A stretch of 35,517 nucleotides of DNA from a virus (IMGVR_UViG_3300028897_000210); one strand, 5' to 3'; shown: positions 1 through 35,517, numbered from the stretch's first letter. Program-made: numbers and translations. The notes: generated from the letters alone by a model not told the origin.

Positions 1-144
1 TCACGCGTGTTTGGAACTGATCCCACGTCTCGTTATGCTGCGGATAGACTCCGAAGAAAGGAGCCAATCCTCCAAAAGGATTGGTTCGCATGAAATCTGC
101 GATCTTGTCTTCGTCGCTCATCCGCTTAAAGAATAGCGACTCGC
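1..144. repeat. terminal direct repeat, copy A (circular-closure overlap)
   Basis: Bases 1-144 (tcacgcgtgtttggaactg...gaatagcgactcgc) are identical to 35374-35517. The unique genome is therefore 35,373 bp. Confidence 0.95.
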
Positions 145-848: not shown

Positions 849-2608
849 AACGGGCCTCCCCCCTTGACCCACCAGTCAATAGAAGCGAGGGTCAAGCCCC
901 CGATGGCGATATAATCAAACTGCGCAGTAGCCGCGAAACCAGCGCCCACAGTGCCGAGCCATCTACGAATTGGATACGGAGGACCGCCCCACTCGCCGAC
1001 ATCCCACAAATCTGTATCCCAAATCCCAACTGCAACTACTGGGAGAGTAGGCACGCTTTTCCATTCTGGAGCAACGTAATCCGTAAGAATTTTGATGGTC
1101 CCTTGCGGCACAATCTGCGCGAGGAACATGGGCCGGACCATTGGATACGACTTGAGTAATCCAGGCGCTCCGAAGCCGTTATACGCAGGAACTACGCGGC
1201 ACCGAATAGATGATCGGTTAGCACCCTCCTCCTTACCAGCAGCGTTGTCCTGCTGATTTGAAAACATGAGATAGACGCGGCCAGCGGCATCTCCACGCAT
1301 CGTTGGATCACCACCGCCAAAAATCAAGTCGCTGTGATTCGTATAGCTAAGGATAGGCAAATCAGCGAGCTTAGACCACGCCCCGTGCGCCCATCTCAAC
1401 GCGAGTTGGCTTACGCCCTCACGGACTACAACTCTCGGCAGACCAACAACTGCCATCTCCTCACGAGGAAGCACCTTGATGTACCACTCTTGCGAGCGAT
1501 TAGATGCCTTCATGTAGCGCGAAATCAGTGGATTGACCAAGTCAGATAGCCCGCCAACCGGATCACTGTTAGCGGCACTCCCCTGCACTAACTTGGACAG
1601 CGGCGTAAGGCCTCGCACTGACAGAATCCATACGTCGCCCCCAGTGAGATCAACTTGCCGCCGCCCAGCGGGTAACGGACCGACGTACCAGATGCCATGA
1701 AGCGAAAAGGCATTGGGGTCTTCAGCCGCGCTGTCCGGATCGTAGCCCTTAAAGATCACTATGTCGCCTTCAGACCCTACGGCGACAAGGTAATCATCAA
1801 TTCCCTCGCCTCCATCCAATGTCCAGTTGACAAGAGCTACAAGATAGCCCCCGTGCCTGAAGTGAGTTCCGAAATCGAACAAACTAGCTTGGCCCGTGAT
1901 TTGCTCAACAGGCAGATACCACGAGCGAGTTGAATTCTTTTCAACGAACCATAGACGTCGTTTCCAAACCATCAGAAAGACGAACAAATCCGGGTCAATG
2001 CCCGTAATCTGTCCGATATTGTCGCCTTCCATGATGTGAGCGAATCCAGTCGACAGTGTCGCGAAACCATCAGAGAATCCGTCGCTAAATCCCCCGGCTC
2101 CGTAGGCGTAGTATCCTCCCTCGTAATTGCAAGCCAGCAGAAATGAACCGGCAGCGTTCTGGAAATTGCGCCACGTCCAGTAGTCGCTCGTTACGGCCCC
2201 ATCTGTAAGCCCGACCCACGGACCCCCGCCGCCAGCCGTAATGTCATAGATGTTATTGTTCGTGCAAGCGAATAATTGCCCGTTCACCACAACATCTGGA
2301 ATTTCAAGCGTGCTCGGAATGCGCAAACTGTGCGAAATAACTCCAGAAGGAGTTGCTATCGCAGGATAGTAAGACATGATCGTCGGGACAGACAAATTCC
2401 CGGGAAGATCCCAAGCCCACCCAGCGTACCCATACCGAGTAGAAAGCCCTGATTCAGTTGTAATGACGTTAATAAGATCAAGCGCAAATTCTGGCCCAAC
2501 CTTGGCAACAGGATCACGAACGTTGATGCCACTAGACGGCAGCAGTCCGGGCATAATCTGCCCATGCTGCTCTACAGCACGATGAACTCTCTGCGGCTGA
2601 GCGAACAT
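845..2608 (-). CDS. large tail structural protein (tail-tube B / nozzle position)
   Basis: 587-aa ORF with an ATGA overlap to the upstream gene. It is the largest protein after the capsid genes and sits where T7 gp12 would be. The function rests on position only. Confidence 0.5.
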   Translation of the reverse strand: MFAQPQRVHRAVEQHGQIMPGLLPSSGINVRDPVAKVGPEFALDLINVITTESGLSTRYGYAGWAWDLPGNLSVPTIMSYYPAIATPSGVISHSLRIPSTLEIPDVVVNGQLFACTNNNIYDITAGGGGPWVGLTDGAVTSDYWTWRNFQNAAGSFLLACNYEGGYYAYGAGGFSDGFSDGFATLSTGFAHIMEGDNIGQITGIDPDLFVFLMVWKRRLWFVEKNSTRSWYLPVEQITGQASLFDFGTHFRHGGYLVALVNWTLDGGEGIDDYLVAVGSEGDIVIFKGYDPDSAAEDPNAFSLHGIWYVGPLPAGRRQVDLTGGDVWILSVRGLTPLSKLVQGSAANSDPVGGLSDLVNPLISRYMKASNRSQEWYIKVLPREEMAVVGLPRVVVREGVSQLALRWAHGAWSKLADLPILSYTNHSDLIFGGGDPTMRGDAAGRVYLMFSNQQDNAAGKEEGANRSSIRCRVVPAYNGFGAPGLLKSYPMVRPMFLAQIVPQGTIKILTDYVAPEWKSVPTLPVVAVGIWDTDLWDVGEWGGPPYPIRRWLGTVGAGFAATAQFDYIAIGGLTLASIDWWVKGGGPL

Positions 2609-3342
2609 CAGTTTCCAAGTCCAGTGTCTGGCGTGTTGACTAAATTGTCCAGATAACGAAAGCCCATGTACGACCCAGCATTCAGCGAAAGGGCTTGCGC
2701 CATCTGATTACGCGAAGTCAACTCCTTGAAACGCTCATTGAAGTCCTGCTGCACTGCCGTCGTGTTCATGCCACGATTTTCGAGCCACTTAATGCGGAGC
2801 GCCTGCGTGAACAGCAGCGAATCGTGCATCGGAGTATCGCTATTCTTTGACAAGCGATTCTTTTTCGTAGCCGTATCGCCGTCGATCACCCAATCCTTGG
2901 AAATGTACTCGAATGTGATGACCTCACCAGCATCCGGTGCAGTCATGAATTGAAGTTGATCGTTGAGAATACGGCACGCCGGATTAACGAAAAACGATTG
3001 CGACAACCACGACTTAATTGAAGCCCACTGCTGCGCATTAATGACAATGACCGGTCGGCGCTTGGATTGCGACCAGCCCGTATCGTCGATAATGCGAGAA
3101 AAATCAGCAGGCAAATCCCACGCCGCGCGCGATGCATCGCCAGCCAATGACCACTCCACACGAAACTGCTGCCAAGGAAAGACGTCTTGCAACATGGGGC
3201 CGATCTCATTTGCAATCGACCCCATGAAAATCGCATTTTCGTCATTCGAGTCGTAAACTCCGGTCGGCTTGACAAGATTCAGACGAGTGCAAGCATCCTG
3301 CACACACGTCAGAATCGGAGCGTAAGTGTAGAGCGCAGACAT
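2608..3342 (-). CDS. tail structural protein (adaptor / tail-tube A position)
   Basis: 244-aa ORF, translationally coupled (ATGA) to the 587-aa tail gene. The function rests on gene order only. Confidence 0.45.
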   Translation of the reverse strand: MSALYTYAPILTCVQDACTRLNLVKPTGVYDSNDENAIFMGSIANEIGPMLQDVFPWQQFRVEWSLAGDASRAAWDLPADFSRIIDDTGWSQSKRRPVIVINAQQWASIKSWLSQSFFVNPACRILNDQLQFMTAPDAGEVITFEYISKDWVIDGDTATKKNRLSKNSDTPMHDSLLFTQALRIKWLENRGMNTTAVQQDFNERFKELTSRNQMAQALSLNAGSYMGFRYLDNLVNTPDTGLGN

Positions 3343-23896: not shown

Positions 23897-24472
23897 ATGG
23901 CAACTCGTGGAAAGAAAGCGCCGCCCCCGGCGAAAGAGGACCCCAAGGCCAAGGAAAAGGACAAGGCCAAGGACAAGGCCAAGAAGCCGGGCCGGTTCGA
24001 GTCGCGGCTCAACCCCAACCACTTCATCACGATGCTGGTGGACTACAACCCCAAGCGCGCGGGTAGTGAGAGCCACGACCGCTTCGAGAACTACCAAGAC
24101 GGAATGACGGTGGCCGAGGCTCTCAAGGCGGGCGTCACCAGCGGCGACCTGAATTGGGACATCAAGCACGGCTTCATCAAGGTGGCCGAAGAGCACGACG
24201 AAAACGCCGAGAAGAAGTCGAAGCCCGCCCCGAAGGCGAAGGCCAAGAAAGAGGCCAAGAAAGAAGAGCCGAAGCGCGGTAAGAAAGCGGCCAAAGAAGC
24301 CGAAGAGGAGGAGGACGAAGACGAAGAGGAGGACGAAGACGAAGAGGAGGACGAAGACGAAGACGAAGACGAAGAGGAGGACGAAGAGGAAGACGAAGAA
24401 GACGAAGAAGACGAAGAAGACGAAGAAGACGAAGAGCCGGTCAAGCCCACTCGCGGGCGCGGCAAGAAGTAG
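23897..24472 (+). CDS. charge-block protein: Lys-rich N-terminus, small globular domain, Lys-rich linker, 45-residue poly-Asp/Glu tract
   Basis: 191 aa with TAGGAGAG before the ATG. The sequence runs MATRGKKAPPPAKEDPKAKEKDKAKDKAKKPG...KSKPAPKAKAKKEAKKEEPKRGKKAAKEA, then 45 consecutive D/E residues, then PVKPTRGRGKK. Confidence 0.8.
   Translation: MATRGKKAPPPAKEDPKAKEKDKAKDKAKKPGRFESRLNPNHFITMLVDYNPKRAGSESHDRFENYQDGMTVAEALKAGVTSGDLNWDIKHGFIKVAEEHDENAEKKSKPAPKAKAKKEAKKEEPKRGKKAAKEAEEEEDEDEEEDEDEEEDEDEDEDEEEDEEEDEEDEEDEEDEEDEEPVKPTRGRGKK
24302..24436. repeat. GAR/GAY codon tandem repeat (encodes the acidic tract)
   Basis: Repeating gaagaggaggacgaagac and gaagaagac units, 135 nt in total. Confidence 0.9.
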
Positions 24473-24489: not shown

Positions 24490-25251
24490 ATGGAAATCTT
24501 TATACCTTCCAGCGGTCGCCCGCTCTCGCAGGTTACTTATCACGCACTACCCAAGGAACTGCGGGAGCGGGTGAAGATCGTTGTACCCCCTGACGAAGTC
24601 TGGGCGTACAGAAAATACCCCATCATCACCCATAAGCGCGTCGTGCGGGACATTTGCAAGGTGCGCCAGTGGATTCTTGAACGGGCACATAACAAGTTCA
24701 TCATGCTCGATGATGATCTTGTATTCGCCATTCGTAGAGAAGATGAGCCAACAAAGTTCCGCCCTGCTACGCACGCCGACATAGTGCACCTATTCGAGAC
24801 CGTTGAATCATTGCTTGGCGGTTACGCTCACGTCGGCATTGCCACGCGAGAAGGCGGAAACCGCAACACTGCAGACTATCTTGAAAACGGGCGCATGATC
24901 CGAGCTCTGGCGTACTGCGCGCGCGTAGTGCTGCAAGAGAAAGCTAGGTTTGACCGAGTGCGCGGACGTGAAGATTTGGACATGACCCTCCAGCTTCTAC
25001 GCCGTGGTCTGGACAATAAAATCGTGAATTGGGCTGTTACGAATCAAGGCGGCTCAAACTCAAAAGGAGGATGTGCGCAGTGGCGGACGTTCGAAGTAAT
25101 GGACGAAACCGCGAAACAACTCCATAAGCTGCATCCAGAATTTGTGCGGCTTGTCAAGAAAACAACCAAAACGGCATGGGGCGGAGGAACTCGCACCGAG
25201 GTCGTTATTTCTTGGAAAAAGGCGTTCGAAAGTGCGCAATCAACGGACTAA
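24490..25251 (+). CDS. GT-A-fold-like glycosyltransferase (DxD)
   Basis: 253 aa. It has an N-terminal beta-strand motif IFIPSSGRP, and FIMLDDDLVF about 80 residues later, which is the usual GT-A order. No search was run. Confidence 0.45.
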   Translation: MEIFIPSSGRPLSQVTYHALPKELRERVKIVVPPDEVWAYRKYPIITHKRVVRDICKVRQWILERAHNKFIMLDDDLVFAIRREDEPTKFRPATHADIVHLFETVESLLGGYAHVGIATREGGNRNTADYLENGRMIRALAYCARVVLQEKARFDRVRGREDLDMTLQLLRRGLDNKIVNWAVTNQGGSNSKGGCAQWRTFEVMDETAKQLHKLHPEFVRLVKKTTKTAWGGGTRTEVVISWKKAFESAQSTD

Positions 25252-26071
25252 AGACGTCGCCTATTGGATATACGAGCGCGAGCAAATCCGAATTAAGAAA
25301 GAAGCCGGTAAGCCTTCCCCGTGGACAAAGGATAAAATCCTCAACACTTATCGCTTTTGCAACGTCAACAGGGAAGACGATAGGGTAACTCGGTGGCTGA
25401 ATAAGCACTGGCGTCGGCCCTACCACGATCACCCCAACCTGATCCCCGCGCTGCTCTTGGCGCGCATGATCAACTGGCCTCCCACGCTGGCCGAGATTGG
25501 CTTCCCCGAAAAGTGGAATCCTGAACATATAATCCAGACCATGCACGCTCGCGCTGCTAGCGGAGAAAAGACGTGGACGAGCGCCTACGTAGTAACTACC
25601 TGTGGCAAGGCGATGGACAAGGCGGTGTACGTTGTTCAGAACGTTTGTGACAGCGTGCGGCGCGCTGGGGTAGGCTACCCTACGCCGCCCAGCCTTGAAG
25701 CGGTCTGGACAGCCCTGCGCGGGTTTGATGGGCTGGGGGCCGGGTTCCTCGCAGCGCAGGTAGTTGCTGATTTGAAGAACACATACCGCAACCCTCTGAA
25801 GAAGGCCCATGACTGGTGGACGTGGGCTGCGCCGGGGCCGGGAAGTCTCCGTGGGCTGAGCACATACTTTGGAACTAGCATAACGCGGAACAACTTTTTG
25901 GATAGCTTGCATGCCATGCAGGAAGAAGTGTACCCTATGCTGGGCGCTAGCGTACCGAGACTGTGCAGCCAGAACTGGCAGAACGTGATGTGCGAGATGT
26001 CAAAGTATTGGAAAGCCGATGAAAACAGAGGAAGACCAAAAGCGTACTATTCCCCGACAACGGAATTCTAA
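25232..26071 (+). CDS. alpha-glutamyl/putrescinyl thymine pyrophosphorylase (aGPT-Pplase)-like DNA base hypermodification protein
   Basis: The frame is open from TTG 25142. No in-frame ATG precedes the conserved region, so the probable start is GTG 25232, after GGAAAAAGG. The N-terminal stretch YEREQIRIKKEAGKPSPWTKDKILNTYRFCNVNREDDRVTRWL matches the family signature as I recall it. Confidence 0.5.
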   Translation: MRNQRTKDVAYWIYEREQIRIKKEAGKPSPWTKDKILNTYRFCNVNREDDRVTRWLNKHWRRPYHDHPNLIPALLLARMINWPPTLAEIGFPEKWNPEHIIQTMHARAASGEKTWTSAYVVTTCGKAMDKAVYVVQNVCDSVRRAGVGYPTPPSLEAVWTALRGFDGLGAGFLAAQVVADLKNTYRNPLKKAHDWWTWAAPGPGSLRGLSTYFGTSITRNNFLDSLHAMQEEVYPMLGASVPRLCSQNWQNVMCEMSKYWKADENRGRPKAYYSPTTEF

Positions 26072-26396
26072 CGGGCAATGGAAGAAAAATCCCAAAGAAG
26101 CGTGGTTTTGTCCAACCCATAAGCGATGGATGGTAGTGGTGACCGGGCACCCACTTTTTCCCGGGAAGAAATACGTCCATCGCGCAAGAAAAGTTATGGC
26201 AGAATATTTAGGGCGAGAACTTCTGCCCTCAGAGATTATCCACCACATAGATGGAGACCGCACAAACGACGACATTGAAAATTTAGAGATTACAACACGG
26301 CGCGGGCATAGGCTTGAACATCAGCAAGATTTAGAGGCCGGATGGACTGCTGAAAAATGGCGCGCGCACAGACGAAAGCGATGGAATCGTGATTAA
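26019..26396 (+). CDS. HNH endonuclease
   Basis: IIHHIDGDRTNDDIENLEITTRRGHRLEH is an HNH_3-type motif. It overlaps the upstream gene end by 53 nt. Confidence 0.75.
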   Translation: MKTEEDQKRTIPRQRNSNGQWKKNPKEAWFCPTHKRWMVVVTGHPLFPGKKYVHRARKVMAEYLGRELLPSEIIHHIDGDRTNDDIENLEITTRRGHRLEHQQDLEAGWTAEKWRAHRRKRWNRD

Positions 26397-26410
26397 TTCG
26401 GAGACAGCGT

Positions 26411-27433
26411 ATGAATGTGATTAATGTAAGGAACGTGAACTCTGCATTCTCAGAGGGTATGTGGCAGTTGAAGGTAATGGGGCGCGTAGAACAAACCCGC
26501 AATGGAGAGGCACTGGCATTCCAAGTTCCAGTGACCACCGTATACCGGATGCCCGAAGAGCGAGTGCTATTTGACTGGCGGAGGGACGCCAACCCTTTCT
26601 TCCATTTGGCGGAGGCCTTGTGGATGCTGGCGGGGAGTGACCTAGTGGATTTCGTCGGCCAGTTTGCCAGCCAGATGTTCGAATACTCGGACGATGGCGA
26701 GACCATCCACGGAGCTTACGGATACCGATGGAGACATCGCTTTGGAGTTGACCAGCTTTGGAACGCCATAAAGCTGCTCAGGAATGACCGCACTACTCGG
26801 CGCTGCGTGATTGGCATCTACGATCCTCGCGTGGATGCGATGTATACTGGGAAGGATCTGCCATGTAACACGATGGTGCATTTCCGCGTGCAGCCGGGAA
26901 ACTACCTTGACATGACGGTGTCCAACAGATCTAATGACATGGTCTGGGGGGCATACGGAGCCAATGCCGTCCATTTTAGCGTGCTACAGGAATTCATAGC
27001 ACGCGCGGCGGGGCTACGGGTAGGCGCATATTGTCAGGTGAGCAACAACCTGCACCTCTACAAGCACCACTATCACTTCGCGACGTCTCCCCCGGCGTAC
27101 GAATTTGAGCTCTACAACAGACCTGAGTGTAGATTCATTCCGCTGCTGCAAGTCAGCGAAAAGCCAGAAGCATTCATCGAAGACTGCGAGCAGTTGGTCA
27201 TAGAAGGAGCCGAGTACAACCCGTTTCAGACTTACTTTTTCAAGCGCGTGGTGGAGCCCATGCTCATCGCCCACGTCGCGCATAAGGCGGGAGACGAAAA
27301 GGGTGCGCTGGATAACATCGAGCGAATGGACCAGTGTGATTGGAAGGTAGCAGCGGATAACTGGCTAAGGAGAAGATACTATGCTGAAGAAGCAGAACAC
27401 CAATGGAATCGTTGGCTCCTCAGAAGCCAATAA
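26411..27433 (+). CDS. divergent thymidylate synthase (ThyA)-family enzyme, possibly a dUMP hydroxymethylase
   Basis: 340 aa with GGAGA before the ATG. It has HGAYGYRWR, the catalytic-Cys motif DLPCNTMVHF, and NRSNDMVWGAYGANAVHFSVLQE with the Asn retained, which implies a uracil substrate. Confidence 0.75.
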   Translation: MNVINVRNVNSAFSEGMWQLKVMGRVEQTRNGEALAFQVPVTTVYRMPEERVLFDWRRDANPFFHLAEALWMLAGSDLVDFVGQFASQMFEYSDDGETIHGAYGYRWRHRFGVDQLWNAIKLLRNDRTTRRCVIGIYDPRVDAMYTGKDLPCNTMVHFRVQPGNYLDMTVSNRSNDMVWGAYGANAVHFSVLQEFIARAAGLRVGAYCQVSNNLHLYKHHYHFATSPPAYEFELYNRPECRFIPLLQVSEKPEAFIEDCEQLVIEGAEYNPFQTYFFKRVVEPMLIAHVAHKAGDEKGALDNIERMDQCDWKVAADNWLRRRYYAEEAEHQWNRWLLRSQ

Positions 27434-27677
27434 GGTTCAGGTTGGCGGCGACCACTATGCCAAGTTCGGACAATGGCAGCACTGGGATGTCGTTCACTAC
27501 TTCAACCTCGGGTACTTTGAAGGCCAGATCACAAAGTACCTCTTCCGGTGGAAAGACAAAGGCGGAGTCAAGGACCTCGAAAAGGCCCAGCATTTTCTGC
27601 AAAAACTCATTGAAATAGCCAAGGCCGAGCAGGACGAAGGAGCTGAACCGGGGCCGGGCTACGTCAAGCAAGATTAG
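27381..27677 (+). CDS. DUF3310-family protein
   Basis: AAGGAGAAG precedes the ATG. QVGGDHY...GQITKYLFRWKDKGGVKDLEKAQHFL matches the DUF3310 pattern. Confidence 0.7.
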   Translation: MLKKQNTNGIVGSSEANKVQVGGDHYAKFGQWQHWDVVHYFNLGYFEGQITKYLFRWKDKGGVKDLEKAQHFLQKLIEIAKAEQDEGAEPGPGYVKQD

Positions 27678-29323: not shown

Positions 29324-30058
29324 TCAGGTCTTGATGATCTTGAACATCACAGCCGAGGGTTGCAGGTTGTTATGCGCCCCGTTACCGCCTGTTCCGTTAT
29401 CCGTAATCGCCCGATTCGGCGTTGATGTTGTCCCCGAATAACTTGCCAGCCCGCTGACTCCGCCAGCCTGACCGTCTGAGCTTGAAACATAATGAGTATG
29501 CGACGGGATTTCCGCAGAGGTCAGCGTATGGGTAGCAGCGCCACCAGAGTCGCCGACGTTGGGGCCGATCACGCCGGGATAAGTGGTTCCCCTGCCGATG
29601 GTCGCCTTGCCGTTCAGGTTCGGGACGGCGAAGGTCGTGCTGCCGTCACCAGCGCCCCACAGAACACCAATGGCTGCGAACAGGGCAGCGTAGGTTGTGC
29701 GGGATACAACTGCACCGTCGCACGGCAGGTATCCGGCTGGCGGGGTTGCTCCGGCGTAGTCCAGCACCGTGCCGGTAACGACTTGCGATGGAACGGGGAT
29801 GCCACCGATAGCTGCTGCGATCGCAGCATCTACCTCCTGCCGCTGTGGGACTTGGCTACCGGTAGCGCCAGCAGGAACAGTCAGCGGCCCAGACAACGCG
29901 CCGCCTGTCAGGGGAACATAACGCGCATCCGCATCATCCCTCGTGATGTACTGCGTGTTGACCAGATACCACGCCTGTCCGTTCCAGCGAAACGTGATGC
30001 CAGCCGCAGGGTTGTAAGTCTGCCCGATGGTCGGGTTAGGCGGAAATTGGAAAGCCAT
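29324..30058 (-). CDS. tail fibre protein with phage tail-collar domain
   Basis: GTVLDYAGATPPAGYLPCDGAVVSRTTYAALFAAIGVLWGAGDGSTTFAVPNLNGKATIGRG followed by GGAATHTLTSAEIPSHTH is the classic tail-collar pattern. Confidence 0.85.
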   Translation of the reverse strand: MAFQFPPNPTIGQTYNPAAGITFRWNGQAWYLVNTQYITRDDADARYVPLTGGALSGPLTVPAGATGSQVPQRQEVDAAIAAAIGGIPVPSQVVTGTVLDYAGATPPAGYLPCDGAVVSRTTYAALFAAIGVLWGAGDGSTTFAVPNLNGKATIGRGTTYPGVIGPNVGDSGGAATHTLTSAEIPSHTHYVSSSDGQAGGVSGLASYSGTTSTPNRAITDNGTGGNGAHNNLQPSAVMFKIIKT

Positions 30059-30067
30059 GTTGATTCC

Positions 30068-31102
30068 TTAAGCAGTTCGTTGCCAGTAGTAAACGGCGAG
30101 ATATGGCTGACGGTTTTCGTGCGGCGTACTAGAGCCACTTGAATTCGATGTTCCGGTATGCGAATGGGTTCCTGCGGATTCCGCGGAGATGCTCATAGGG
30201 CTGGAGACGAAGGTGGTTCCAGTGCCATAAGCCTGCACGGCTTTTGGATCTGAGCCTCCATCTGATGAGTATGTAGTCCCACCTAAAGTGTGTACGTGCG
30301 CGCCATCTGGGTTAGTCGTGAATGGATGACTATGCGATCCATTTTCAGCCTCAGTCAGCGCATGGCGTGCCTCACCACCTTCCTCACCCGCGGCATAAGT
30401 ATCACTGCCGAGAGTGCCGACACCGAGCAGGACACGCCCTGCCGCAATCTGCGACCACGTACCGCCGAGAAATCCTGCCGGACTTGTATTTCCCGCAGTG
30501 ATGTAGACAGCCCCGATTGGAAAAGCATTGAGCAACTGGCTAGCAGGAACTTGTCCGCCTGAGTCCAGAGTTGCTACCCCATCCGGCGCACCTTTTTCAT
30601 CGTAGGGTACAAAATCTCCCCCAGTTGGTCCAAGCGAGATGAGCGTGCGCGTTGCATCAGGATTGACGTACTCCATGAGATACGCAGCGTTGTCGCTGTC
30701 GTACCACGTCTCACCTTGCTTCATGTCAGCAGGTTCATCATCCTGCACATTGATGAACGACGAAATACCCTCTGCGGTCTTACCTGAAGCGAGCGCGATA
30801 CCTTGATCAGTGATGGCAAACACATCTTGCCCCCCGACCGAGTACCAGAACTCATTCGCACCCTTACGGTACCACCCCGATGATGGCTCATTCGTCCACG
30901 AAATACCCGGCGCGCTGATAGTGCCGTCCGCATTCTTAAACGGCCCAGCCATACCGCCAAGGCCAGTACGAGAAAGTGAATCAGTTAATGCAAAAGCGAT
31001 GTCCTCCATTGTCGGATTGGCCCAATCCGTTTCAATGATGGTACGCGGAACAACCGGATTACCCGGCGGCAGCGTGTAATTTCCTGATGCGTCGCGTGGC
31101 AT
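30068..31102 (-). CDS. tail fibre protein (conserved podoviral N-terminal anchor plus an HxH C-terminal domain)
   Basis: The N-terminus is MPRDASGNYTLPPGNPVVPRTIIETDWANPTMEDIAFALTDSLSRTG. The C-terminus carries GGEARHALTEAENGSHSHPF, GAHVH and GTHSHTG. Confidence 0.8.
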   Translation of the reverse strand: MPRDASGNYTLPPGNPVVPRTIIETDWANPTMEDIAFALTDSLSRTGLGGMAGPFKNADGTISAPGISWTNEPSSGWYRKGANEFWYSVGGQDVFAITDQGIALASGKTAEGISSFINVQDDEPADMKQGETWYDSDNAAYLMEYVNPDATRTLISLGPTGGDFVPYDEKGAPDGVATLDSGGQVPASQLLNAFPIGAVYITAGNTSPAGFLGGTWSQIAAGRVLLGVGTLGSDTYAAGEEGGEARHALTEAENGSHSHPFTTNPDGAHVHTLGGTTYSSDGGSDPKAVQAYGTGTTFVSSPMSISAESAGTHSHTGTSNSSGSSTPHENRQPYLAVYYWQRTA

Positions 31103-35305: not shown

Positions 35306-35517
35306 CTAGCCCCACATCGGTTGATCAAGGTAAGCGAAGGGATCATCTTGGCCAGTACGCGAGTACATGGGCTTCACGCGTGTTTGGAACTGATCCCACG
35401 TCTCGTTATGCTGCGGATAGACTCCGAAGAAAGGAGCCAATCCTCCAAAAGGATTGGTTCGCATGAAATCTGCGATCTTGTCTTCGTCGCTCATCCGCTT
35501 AAAGAATAGCGACTCGC
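35306..35517 (-). CDS. C-terminal part of the junction-spanning virion gene (same gene as 1..421)
   Basis: The frame stays open to the window end. It ends ...MSDEDKIADFMRTNPFGGLAPFFGVYPQHNETWDQFQTRVKPMYSRTGQDDPFAYLDQPMWG with stop at 35306. Confidence 0.7.
   Translation of the reverse strand, partial: ESLFFKRMSDEDKIADFMRTNPFGGLAPFFGVYPQHNETWDQFQTRVKPMYSRTGQDDPFAYLDQPMWG
35374..35517. repeat. terminal direct repeat, copy B (circular-closure overlap)
   Basis: Identical to 1-144. The repeat lies inside an open reading frame that continues seamlessly into base 145 onward. Confidence 0.95.

Follow-up and report, generated by a model that had tools for sequence, protein, structure and literature searches.

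Organization of the island

This work concerns five adjacent plus-strand genes of the uncultured virus IMGVR_UViG_3300028897_000210, whose whole stretch of 35,517 nt (hereafter the window) was analysed. An earlier reading by a model that saw only the sequence (hereafter the original prediction) had described these genes as a compact candidate island for thymidine hypermodification that lacks the canonical kinase. They encode a glycosyltransferase of the TAGT family, a protein of family PF18723, an HNH endonuclease, a ThyA-family enzyme and a DUF3310 protein (Table 1). The identity of the first 144 nt of the window (1-144) with its last 144 nt (35374-35517) shows that it represents a complete phage genome of about 35.4 kb, which was assembled as a circle or has redundant ends, and claims of absence from the whole genome are therefore checkable. 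The five open reading frames (ORFs) were recovered at the predicted coordinates in our ORF list, and independent gene calls in three separate assemblies of the phage (ERZ27275891, SRR5248174 and SRR14699988) gave the same five products, with the lengths of Table 1 and the same Pfam families. The PF18723 gene starts with GTG at 25232, after the GGAAAAAGG stretch, and overlaps the end of the glycosyltransferase gene by 20 nt; the DUF3310 gene, which has an ATG at 27381 as its start codon, shares 53 nt with the hydroxymethylase gene. A DUF3310 start at a GTG just past the hydroxymethylase stop was also considered and rejected, as there is no such codon in the sequence.

Table 1. Genes of the island and the gene directly 5' of it
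Product	Length (aa)	Coordinates	Strand	Basis or remark
Protein with Lys-rich N-terminus and Asp/Glu-rich C-terminal tail	191	23897..24472	+	Directly 5' of the glycosyltransferase gene; no Pfam family
TAGT-family GT-A glycosyltransferase	253	24490..25251	+	PF20691, phrog_842, AlphaFold2 model and Foldseek
PF18723 protein (HMUDK_hel)	279	25232..26071	+	PF18723 profile, M6 gp55 ortholog
Free-standing HNH endonuclease	125	26019..26396	+	PF13392 HNH_3, HNH PHROGs
Predicted ThyA-family pyrimidine hydroxymethylase, uracil-type	340	26411..27433	+	PF00303, phrog_5131, M6 gp58 ortholog
DUF3310 protein	98	27381..27677	+	PF11753, phrog_5839

The putative hydroxymethylase and the glycosyltransferase

The ThyA-like protein matches PF00303 (Thymidylat_synt, E 6.5e-22), its closest family is phrog_5131 (E 4e-108), and phmmer with gp58 of phage M6 retrieved it as an ortholog (265 bits, 43% identity, E 3e-80). 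Researchers have found that M6 DNA carries bases derived from 5-hydroxymethyl-2'-deoxyuridine (5-hmdU) (PMC5889632, PMC8989533), and this orthology to the M6/YuA enzyme is our main argument that the window protein would convert dUMP into 5-hmdUMP. The catalytic Cys and the uracil-specifying Asn noted in the original prediction are indeed kept, since LPC152NT and GAN185AV align with C146 (PCH) and N177 (PFN177IA) of ThyA. In a further, provisional alignment with Escherichia coli ThyA, the equivalents of the nucleotide-binding and catalytic residues R21, E58, Y94, C146, R166, S167, D169, N177, H207 and Y209 are all retained, while on the folate side W80 is deleted, L143 is changed to Asp, H147 to Asn and F176 to Ala, and the C-terminal folate clamp is replaced by an extension of roughly 70 residues. 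These losses fit a hydroxymethylase better than a reductive methylase, although they are no proof. The Pfam match itself and the complete set of thymidylate synthase nucleotide-binding and catalytic residues would also suit an ordinary thymidylate synthase that makes dTMP among unrelated neighbours; we regard this as very improbable, given the strong orthology to the enzyme of 5-hmdU-hypermodifying phages, the loss of W80, L143, F176 and the C-terminal clamp, which position the folate for hydride transfer (in the same provisional alignment), and the near-universal synteny with PF18723 described below.

A further alternative is a T-even-like system, in which a dCMP hydroxymethylase would serve the glucosylation of 5-hydroxymethylcytosine (5-hmC). 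The pairing of a hydroxymethylase with a DNA glycosyltransferase mirrors T4 and T6, and the PHROG label of the window glycosyltransferase is taken from the T6 enzyme, but the alternative is scarcely credible, because the T4-like pathway is excluded by Asn rather than Asp at the base-specifying position. The CMP hydroxymethylase MilA, the best solved relative, has Asp where the window protein has Asn185, and both Cys152 and Asn185 occur in all but one aligned family member from related loci, the exception being a gap at the Asn column; moreover, Pfam scans of the genome revealed neither a dCTPase nor any dCMP-specific function. Judged by these active-site residues, the hydroxymethylase family is of the uracil type.

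The first protein of the island had been described as GT-A-like with a DxD motif, and this assignment holds at the level of both profile and fold, which place it inside the glycosyltransferases. It matches the TAGT family PF20691 with E 1.5e-16 (61.4 bits, cutoff 27.5) and phrog_842 with E 7e-44, and it contains the IPSSGR...MLDDD motif, in which D74-D75-D76, the DxD motif for metal and nucleoside diphosphate (NDP)-sugar binding, is invariant in 35 homologs. Its AlphaFold2 model (predicted local distance difference test score, pLDDT, 93.1) has a GT-A, Rossmann-like fold, and its Foldseek neighbours in the PDB are GT-A enzymes, the best being TarP (E 4e-7). The TAGT family owes its name to its association with TET/JBP (5mYOX) dioxygenases. 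Whole-genome Pfam scans found no 2-oxoglutarate/Fe (2OG/Fe) dioxygenase in the window, and the ThyA-family enzyme is the partner instead. TAGT-type GT-A enzymes have been reported to glycosylate 5-hydroxymethylpyrimidines in phage DNA and to resemble the base-J glucosyltransferase, and GT-A genes often adjoin ThyS genes in viral metagenomes (bioRxiv 10.1101/2023.12.21.572611); the substrate of the T6 member is glucosyl-hmC DNA (PMC13390438). By its gene context, the window enzyme is predicted to be a post-replicative DNA glycosyltransferase acting on 5-hydroxymethyluracil (5-hmU).

It is improbable, though somewhat less so than the plain thymidylate synthase, that the glycosyltransferase acts on a host surface polymer or another molecule in a TarP-like or seroconversion-like manner, with the hydroxymethylase and the PF18723 protein giving 5-hmU DNA or another non-glycosylated derivative. 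This possibility draws on the nearest solved structures, which are TarP, a wall-teichoic-acid glycosyltransferase, and other polysaccharide or protein GT-A enzymes, there being no DNA-bound TAGT structure for comparison. However, TarP also ranks first among the PDB neighbours of GT-A enzymes proven to act on DNA (bioRxiv 10.1101/2023.12.21.572611), and the characterised members of TAGT act on phage DNA (PMC13390438; bioRxiv 10.1101/2023.12.21.572611). The gene also lies inside the replication module, overlaps the PF18723 gene, keeps its position in 33 loci and is mutually exclusive with a DNA kinase, all of which argue for a DNA acceptor.

The PF18723 protein

The second protein of the island is a full-length, single-domain member of PF18723 (E 1.6e-35, 123 bits, cutoff 25), and M6 gp55 matches it in phmmer with E 4e-39. 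The accession was formerly named aGPT-Pplase clade 1 and is at present named HMUDK_hel, for the helical domain of 5-hmdU DNA kinases, and both names are used for it by JGI/GenBank and in BFVD. The resemblance to aGPT-pyrophosphorylases that had been proposed is thus correct in that the protein lies inside these former families and its N-terminal F-x-N-V-x-R-E-x-D-x-x-T-x-W is the conserved PF18723 motif, but it does not extend to the former clade 2, PF18724 (ADDT), to which the window protein gave no match at E<=1, whereas M6 gp51 scores E 1.4e-46. PF18724 is the family of M6 gp51, ViI gp247 and PaMx11 gp46, and the only one of the clades for which amino acid:DNA transferase (AADT) activity has been demonstrated. 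Since the window protein belongs to PF18723 and not to PF18724, and since M6 gp55 is dispensable in the reconstituted pathway (PMC8989533), the step from kinase to pyrophosphorylase in the characterised phages is not simply transferable to this island. Nor does the situation behind the present family name, a fused or adjacent kinase, apply here, as the 5' neighbour is the TAGT gene. The family comprises 4,916 clusters at 50% identity (E<=1e-3), no assigned function for it was found in the searchable literature, and within the phage collection it occurs mainly in groups with known thymidine-hypermodifying phages (M6/YuA-like and ViI-like).

The AlphaFold2 model of the protein is all-alpha (pLDDT 94.6). 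Foldseek against BFVD gave template modelling (TM) scores of 0.84 for the RSL1 homolog, 0.83 for the PhiW-14 homolog, 0.78 for the C-terminal domain of the SP10 5-hmdU DNA kinase (gp186), 0.52 for proteins annotated as amino acid:DNA transferases (E 1e-3, probability 1.0; a link to the AADT fold that comes solely from BFVD predicted models) and 0.43 for endonuclease III (EndoIII). Against the PDB, Foldseek gave no match with E below 1, and 8Z2M and 8Z2N, which are solved structures of AADT, did not come up; weak likeness appeared only to EndoIII, AGOG and a queuine-salvage DUF2419 enzyme, all of them similar to helix-hairpin-helix (HhH) glycosylases, and a sequence profile search of the PDB gave no meaningful match. 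In its predicted structure, the PF18723 protein shares a fold group (HhH/AADT-like) with AADT enzymes, in which a pocket receives the flipped target base (PMC11472151, PMC13458397), and it is predicted to engage 5-hmU in DNA. Fusions of PF18723 with TAGT or a kinase were sought: of the best 150 representatives from an exhaustive profile search, eight of the longer proteins were scanned with Pfam, yielding one fusion with PolA; five others have tails, some of low complexity, with no TAGT, kinase or hydroxymethylase signal. The fusion, P0347 (871 aa), joins part of a family-A DNA polymerase to PF18723 as its C-terminal domain and may be a replication-coupled fusion or a gene-calling artefact.

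Enzymes absent from the genome and the DUF3310 protein

No P-loop 5-hmdU DNA kinase, pyridoxal phosphate (PLP) enzyme or radical S-adenosylmethionine (radical-SAM) enzyme was found anywhere in the genome, in agreement with the original prediction. A six-frame Walker-A scan located P-loops solely in the primase-helicase and in one large structural ORF; phmmer with M6 gp51 (AADT), gp52 (PLP), gp53 (radical-SAM) and gp54 (kinase), and likewise with gp56 (Nmad5), gp59 (HD) and gp65 (dCMP deaminase), gave no match in the window; and a hidden Markov model (HMM) of kinases from related phages found nothing, its best E-value being 1.6. Pfam scans of the main ORFs of >=100 aa (39 ORFs) showed otherwise only replication and structural functions, with no other nucleotide-modifying enzyme. 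Thus, of the canonical kinase-dependent pathway, which consists of hydroxymethylase, P-loop 5-hmdU DNA kinase and AADT, only the hydroxymethylase and the PF18723 ortholog are present here.

A non-canonical kinase at the nucleotide level may nevertheless be present in the form of the DUF3310 protein, because DUF3310 is the only Pfam domain (aa 122-184) of the T7 gp1.7 nucleotide kinase. T7 gp1.7 is a dTMP/dGMP kinase without a P-loop. The window protein matches PF11753 (E 3e-6), phrog_5839 (E 2e-23) and several PHROGs labelled as nucleotide kinases, and BLASTP aligned it to gp1.7 over 63 residues with E 0.003; it is the bare domain, without the N-terminal region of about 120 aa of the T7 protein. 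A part for it in the phosphorylation of 5-hmdUMP is only a lead. Its inclusion in the island was justified, as about 54 of 59 related loci have DUF3310 on the 3' side of the hydroxymethylase, which makes it a conserved member of the module.

Comparative genomics of related loci

An IMG/VR scan with two query proteins gave 56 loci, to which M6, PhiJL001, the Manatee Spring phage, a contig of a metagenome-assembled genome (MAG) from NCBI and RSL1 were added. The tblastn comparison revealed a collinear order of PolA, PD-(D/E)XK nuclease, SNF2 helicase and small acidic protein, followed by a variable gene, PF18723, the hydroxymethylase, in some cases an HD nucleotidase, and DUF3310, with proteins 27-49% identical to those of the window. 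This collinear module recurs in 41 diverse loci, so the gene adjacency is far beyond chance. The reading of the locus as a thymidine-hypermodification island is supported, and the conserved synteny contradicts the proposal of a plain ThyA among unrelated neighbours.

The variable gene directly 5' of PF18723 was clustered in 55 loci: 33 carry a TAGT and 10 a P-loop kinase (PF18748, HMUDK-like), and the rest comprise 5 radical-SAM/SPASM proteins, 3 GT-B-like proteins of about 425 aa and 4 singletons. When profile HMMs were applied to 57 PF18723 loci, TAGT was found in 41, a P-loop kinase in 11, both in none and neither in 5, of which 3 have the GT-B-like gene and 2 are cut at the contig end. About 8 loci with both would be expected under independence, and since the loci are phylogenetically related, no formal probability is given for this exclusion. 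In a neighbour-joining tree of the PF18723 proteins (no bootstrap), kinase-linked members are scattered over at least four distinct positions among the TAGT-linked proteins, and this interleaving indicates that the variable gene has been repeatedly exchanged around a constant core of PF18723 and hydroxymethylase.

Several loci depart from the simple arrangement. In five of them a radical-SAM/SPASM gene lies between TAGT and PF18723 (L025:4922-5989, L028:1411-2526 and L031:1706-2812, and also L036 and L056), which implies a more elaborate variant of the modification. Three others have a protein of about 410-425 aa directly 5' of PF18723 (L012:4719-5993, L022:4772-6001 and L057:4695-5933); the L012 protein has weak GT-B signatures (Glyco_transf_4 / Glycos_transf_1, E about 1e-3), a Pfam scan of its L022 and L057 homologs gave no match, and the gene may represent a third kind of transferase partner. 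Two tandem TAGT paralogs 5' of PF18723 (L027:2280-3838) would fit a disaccharide modification.

The module is also present in two cultured phages. PhiJL001 encodes PF18723 (gp19), TAGT (gp22), Nmad5 (gp23), the hydroxymethylase (gp24), an HD protein (gp25), DUF3310 (gp26) and a dCMP deaminase (gp30). In RSL1 the region 162923-177762 (L065) contains an APS-kinase-like protein, three TAGTs, an NDP-sugar pyrophosphorylase-like protein, a nucleotidyltransferase and a galactose-3-O-sulfotransferase-like protein, followed by ORF231 (PF18723, E 4e-56) and then ORF230, an Asn-type hydroxymethylase. Judging from this cluster, RSL1, a cultured jumbo phage, may carry a sulfated glycan attached to 5-hmU.

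Five loci of the kinase type (L011, L016, L029, L043 and L045) combine a P-loop 5-hmdU DNA kinase with PF18723, the hydroxymethylase, an HD protein and DUF3310. No AADT was found within +-6 kb in kinase-type loci, a result limited by the sensitivity of a single-sequence search and by the flank length. Either 5-phosphomethyl-2'-deoxyuridine (5-PmdU) is the end product in these loci, or PF18723 processes it.

The second of these options leads to an alternative view of the whole module, in which PF18723 is the key Cys-dependent catalyst, related to AADT, that attacks C6 of a uracil substituted at C5 and swaps or remodels this substituent. The TAGT or kinase would then only supply or decorate the substrate, and the final base would not be a simple O-glycosyl-5-hmU. 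We consider this unlikely, but it stays alive because PF18723 is the sole candidate for acting on 5-PmdU in kinase-type loci, where no AADT was seen in the flanks. Among 38 PF18723 homologs, 35 columns are invariant, and these mostly polar residues would be expected in an active site more than in a passive helical domain. They include C254-E255-x-x-K258, a motif also found in M6 gp55, PhiJL001 gp19 and RSL1 ORF231. With hhalign, C254 falls on the Cys of E-T-V-L-C in M6 gp51, although the match is weak (E 0.11, 28 columns). In Pplase2 the Cys of E-T-x-x-C is the catalytic nucleophile (PMC8989533, PMC11472151, PMC13458397) and the E-T pair binds metal (PMC8989533, PMC13458397). The fold likeness to AADT proteins, with its TM score of 0.52, points in the same direction. 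On the other hand, the positions -4/-3 from C254 are Q-N in the window protein instead of the E-T metal ligands of Pplase2, there is no PF18724 match, M6 gp55 can be dispensed with, and a glycoside or a free hydroxyl leaves poorly by comparison with phosphate; genes for AADT may also lie beyond the examined flanks of the kinase-type contigs.

Proposed pathway and its assessment

We propose that the island is a compact version of a module, widespread among phages, for DNA with glycosylated, base-J-like 5-hmU, a reading to which we assign a probability of roughly 0.55. In the first step, the ThyA-family enzyme would turn dUMP into 5-hmdUMP, as its orthology and active-site residues suggest. Host kinases, possibly aided by the DUF3310 protein, would then phosphorylate 5-hmdUMP, and the phage family-A polymerase (PolA) would incorporate 5-hmU, probably in place of only part of the T, because the enzymes that exclude dTTP in relatives (HD nucleotidase, dCMP deaminase and dTTPase) are lacking here. 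After replication, TAGT would move a sugar from a host NDP-sugar onto the 5-CH2OH of 5-hmU in DNA; we infer this step from the TAGT family, the GT-A fold and the fact that a kinase for the same hydroxyl occupies the same slot in sister phages. Least certain is the fourth step, in which PF18723 would engage the flipped-out 5-hmU, either as the partner that presents the substrate to the transferase or as a further Cys-dependent enzyme; PF18723 is constant beside the hydroxymethylase whatever transferase lies 5' of it. The likely role of the modification is to shield phage DNA from host nucleases.

The original prediction, which is supported in part, had left three options, namely a glycosylated 5-hmU, a non-canonical route to a substituted thymine, or a plain ThyA among unrelated neighbours. 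Since TAGT and kinase are mutually exclusive in the same slot and both would target the 5-CH2OH, glycosylated 5-hmU fits the comparative data best. Several points weigh against it. What the acceptor is, which sugar it receives and how far substitution goes are all inferences, and characterised TAGT members use 5-hmC or glucosyl-5-hmC and not 5-hmU, while TarP, a teichoic-acid glycosyltransferase, as the best structural neighbour formally leaves room for a non-DNA acceptor. A dUMP hydroxymethylase and a thymidylate synthase are not strictly distinguishable by sequence alone. As regards PF18723, no fusion with TAGT was found among the top 120 homologs of each protein, all of them single-domain; N-alpha-GlyT forms without gp55 in the reconstituted M6 reaction, and the SP10 kinase is active without its own PF18723 domain (PMC8989533). 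The conserved Cys-Glu hints at a possible catalytic function of PF18723 itself, and the final base would then perhaps be no simple O-glycoside. Taken together, the island is well supported as a hypermodification module, and a glycosylated 5-hmU is its plausible, unproven product.

A broader and more tentative proposal, which we hold to be possible but somewhat doubtful, is that O-glycosylated 5-hmU occurs in the DNA of a large global group of small uncultured phages as well as PhiJL001 and RSL1, that it is made by a pre-replicative ThyA-type route and not by a JBP dioxygenase, and that PF18723 is a general base-flipping, Cys-dependent component for 5-hmU DNA which combines interchangeably with a glycosyltransferase or a kinase.

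Relation to known systems

The hypermodification clusters of M6/YuA, ViI, PhiW-14 and SP10, which belong to phages of Pseudomonas, Salmonella, Delftia and Bacillus (Lee et al. 2018, 2021), provide the closest comparison. Like the M6-type clusters, the window has orthologs of the gp58 hydroxymethylase and the gp55 PF18723 protein in the same order, followed by DUF3310 (M6 gp61), and it would share their logic of pre-replicative 5-hmdU followed by post-replicative chemistry on the 5-CH2OH. In contrast to them, it has no P-loop kinase (gp54), AADT (gp51, PF18724), PLP enzyme, radical-SAM enzyme or Nmad5, and TAGT takes the place of the kinase, so that the predicted adduct is a sugar instead of an amino acid or polyamine.

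The T-even phages, with T4 gp42 and alpha/beta-glucosyltransferases and the T6 beta-glucosyl-HMC-alpha-glucosyltransferase, also join a ThyA-family hydroxymethylase at the nucleotide level to a post-replicative DNA glycosyltransferase, and the T6 enzyme belongs to the same Pfam and PHROG family as that of the window. However, the window hydroxymethylase has Asn and not Asp, the window lacks a dCTPase and contains PF18723 in addition, and its single glycosyltransferase must add the first sugar, whereas that of T6 places a second glucose on glucosyl-hmC. Kinetoplastid base J belongs to the predicted product class, a 5-hmU in DNA that has been O-glycosylated by an enzyme of the GT-A fold, and phage GT-A proteins have been reported as structural homologs of the base-J glucosyltransferase (JGT). 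It differs in that its 5-hmU arises on DNA through a 2OG/Fe dioxygenase, while that of the window would arise before replication through the ThyA-family enzyme; the window has no JBP, and its organism is a virus of bacteria.

Phage clusters that combine 5mYOX/TET with GT-A enzymes (Burke 2021; Pyle 2024; the T-dioxygenase paper of 2026) use the same glycosyltransferase family, TAGT, and these papers suggest that some clusters glycosylate 5-hmU; indeed, many phage dioxygenase-glycosyltransferase clusters probably act on 5-hmU (bioRxiv 10.1101/2023.12.21.572611; PMC13229309). Unlike these, the window has neither a dioxygenase nor a C5-methyltransferase, and its hydroxymethyl group would come from the nucleotide pool. 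PhiJL001, a phage of Alphaproteobacteria, and the Ralstonia jumbo phage RSL1 share TAGT, PF18723 and the Asn-type hydroxymethylase with the window, and PhiJL001 also shares DUF3310; PhiJL001 differs by its additional Nmad5, HD nucleotidase and dCMP deaminase, and RSL1 by its three TAGTs, NDP-sugar enzymes and sulfotransferase. No published DNA-modification analysis of PhiJL001 or RSL1 was found in the literature searched.

Iyer and colleagues reportedly defined both TAGT and aGPT-Pplase in 2013, and their work may already predict this gene combination. Outside that work, the literature searched contained no report of glycosylated 5-hmU in phage DNA, only papers on kinetoplastid base J and predictions. 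A base-J-like modification of viral DNA has been predicted before, and the module is a variant of known hypermodification systems. If the broader proposal is true, its O-glycosylated 5-hmU would be the first nucleotide of the base-J type to occur naturally outside the euglenozoan eukaryotes, and base-J-like DNA would be a common viral invention that joins a T4-style nucleotide route to a glycosyltransferase of the TET-associated type. Such DNA would resist many restriction and CRISPR nucleases and would be a target for modification-dependent (type IV) enzymes. The alternation of TAGT and kinase beside PF18723 offers a tangible way into a family that numbers thousands of sequences, and a 5-hmU-directed DNA glycosyltransferase together with a 5-hmU reader or flipper could serve in 5-hmU mapping. 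PhiJL001 and RSL1 are the nearest experimentally tractable carriers of the module, which makes the prediction directly testable.

Additional features of the locus and genome

The HNH protein matches PF13392 HNH_3 (E 1.7e-9) and many HNH PHROGs, so the free-standing endonuclease of the original prediction is present, but it is not a member of the pathway. As tblastn found no homolog at any position in any of the 59 related loci, the gene is a selfish, mobile insertion of the homing type. Other extra sequence occurs at the PF18723/hydroxymethylase junction in L009, L019 and L012, which suggests a hotspot for mobile insertions.

The tail of the acidic 191-aa protein upstream of the island is encoded by about 20 GACGAA codon repeats. 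In tblastn it has matches in about 19 related loci at the same place, between the SNF2 helicase and TAGT, and these in part reflect composition, as low-complexity filtering was switched off; L061 has a small ORF in the same slot. The protein could be a DNA mimic or a histone-like protein and a possible accessory of the module.

No tRNA genes were found in the window, and Pfam scans of its main ORFs gave no integrase. These scans identified a family-A polymerase, a PD-(D/E)XK nuclease, an SNF2 helicase, a DUF5906/VapE primase-helicase, a DUF932 protein, a terminase, an SU10-type adaptor and tail-collar fibres. The SU10-type adaptor (2608-3342, minus strand) and two tail-collar/Gp10_C fibre proteins (29324-31102, minus strand) point to a podovirus-like virion.

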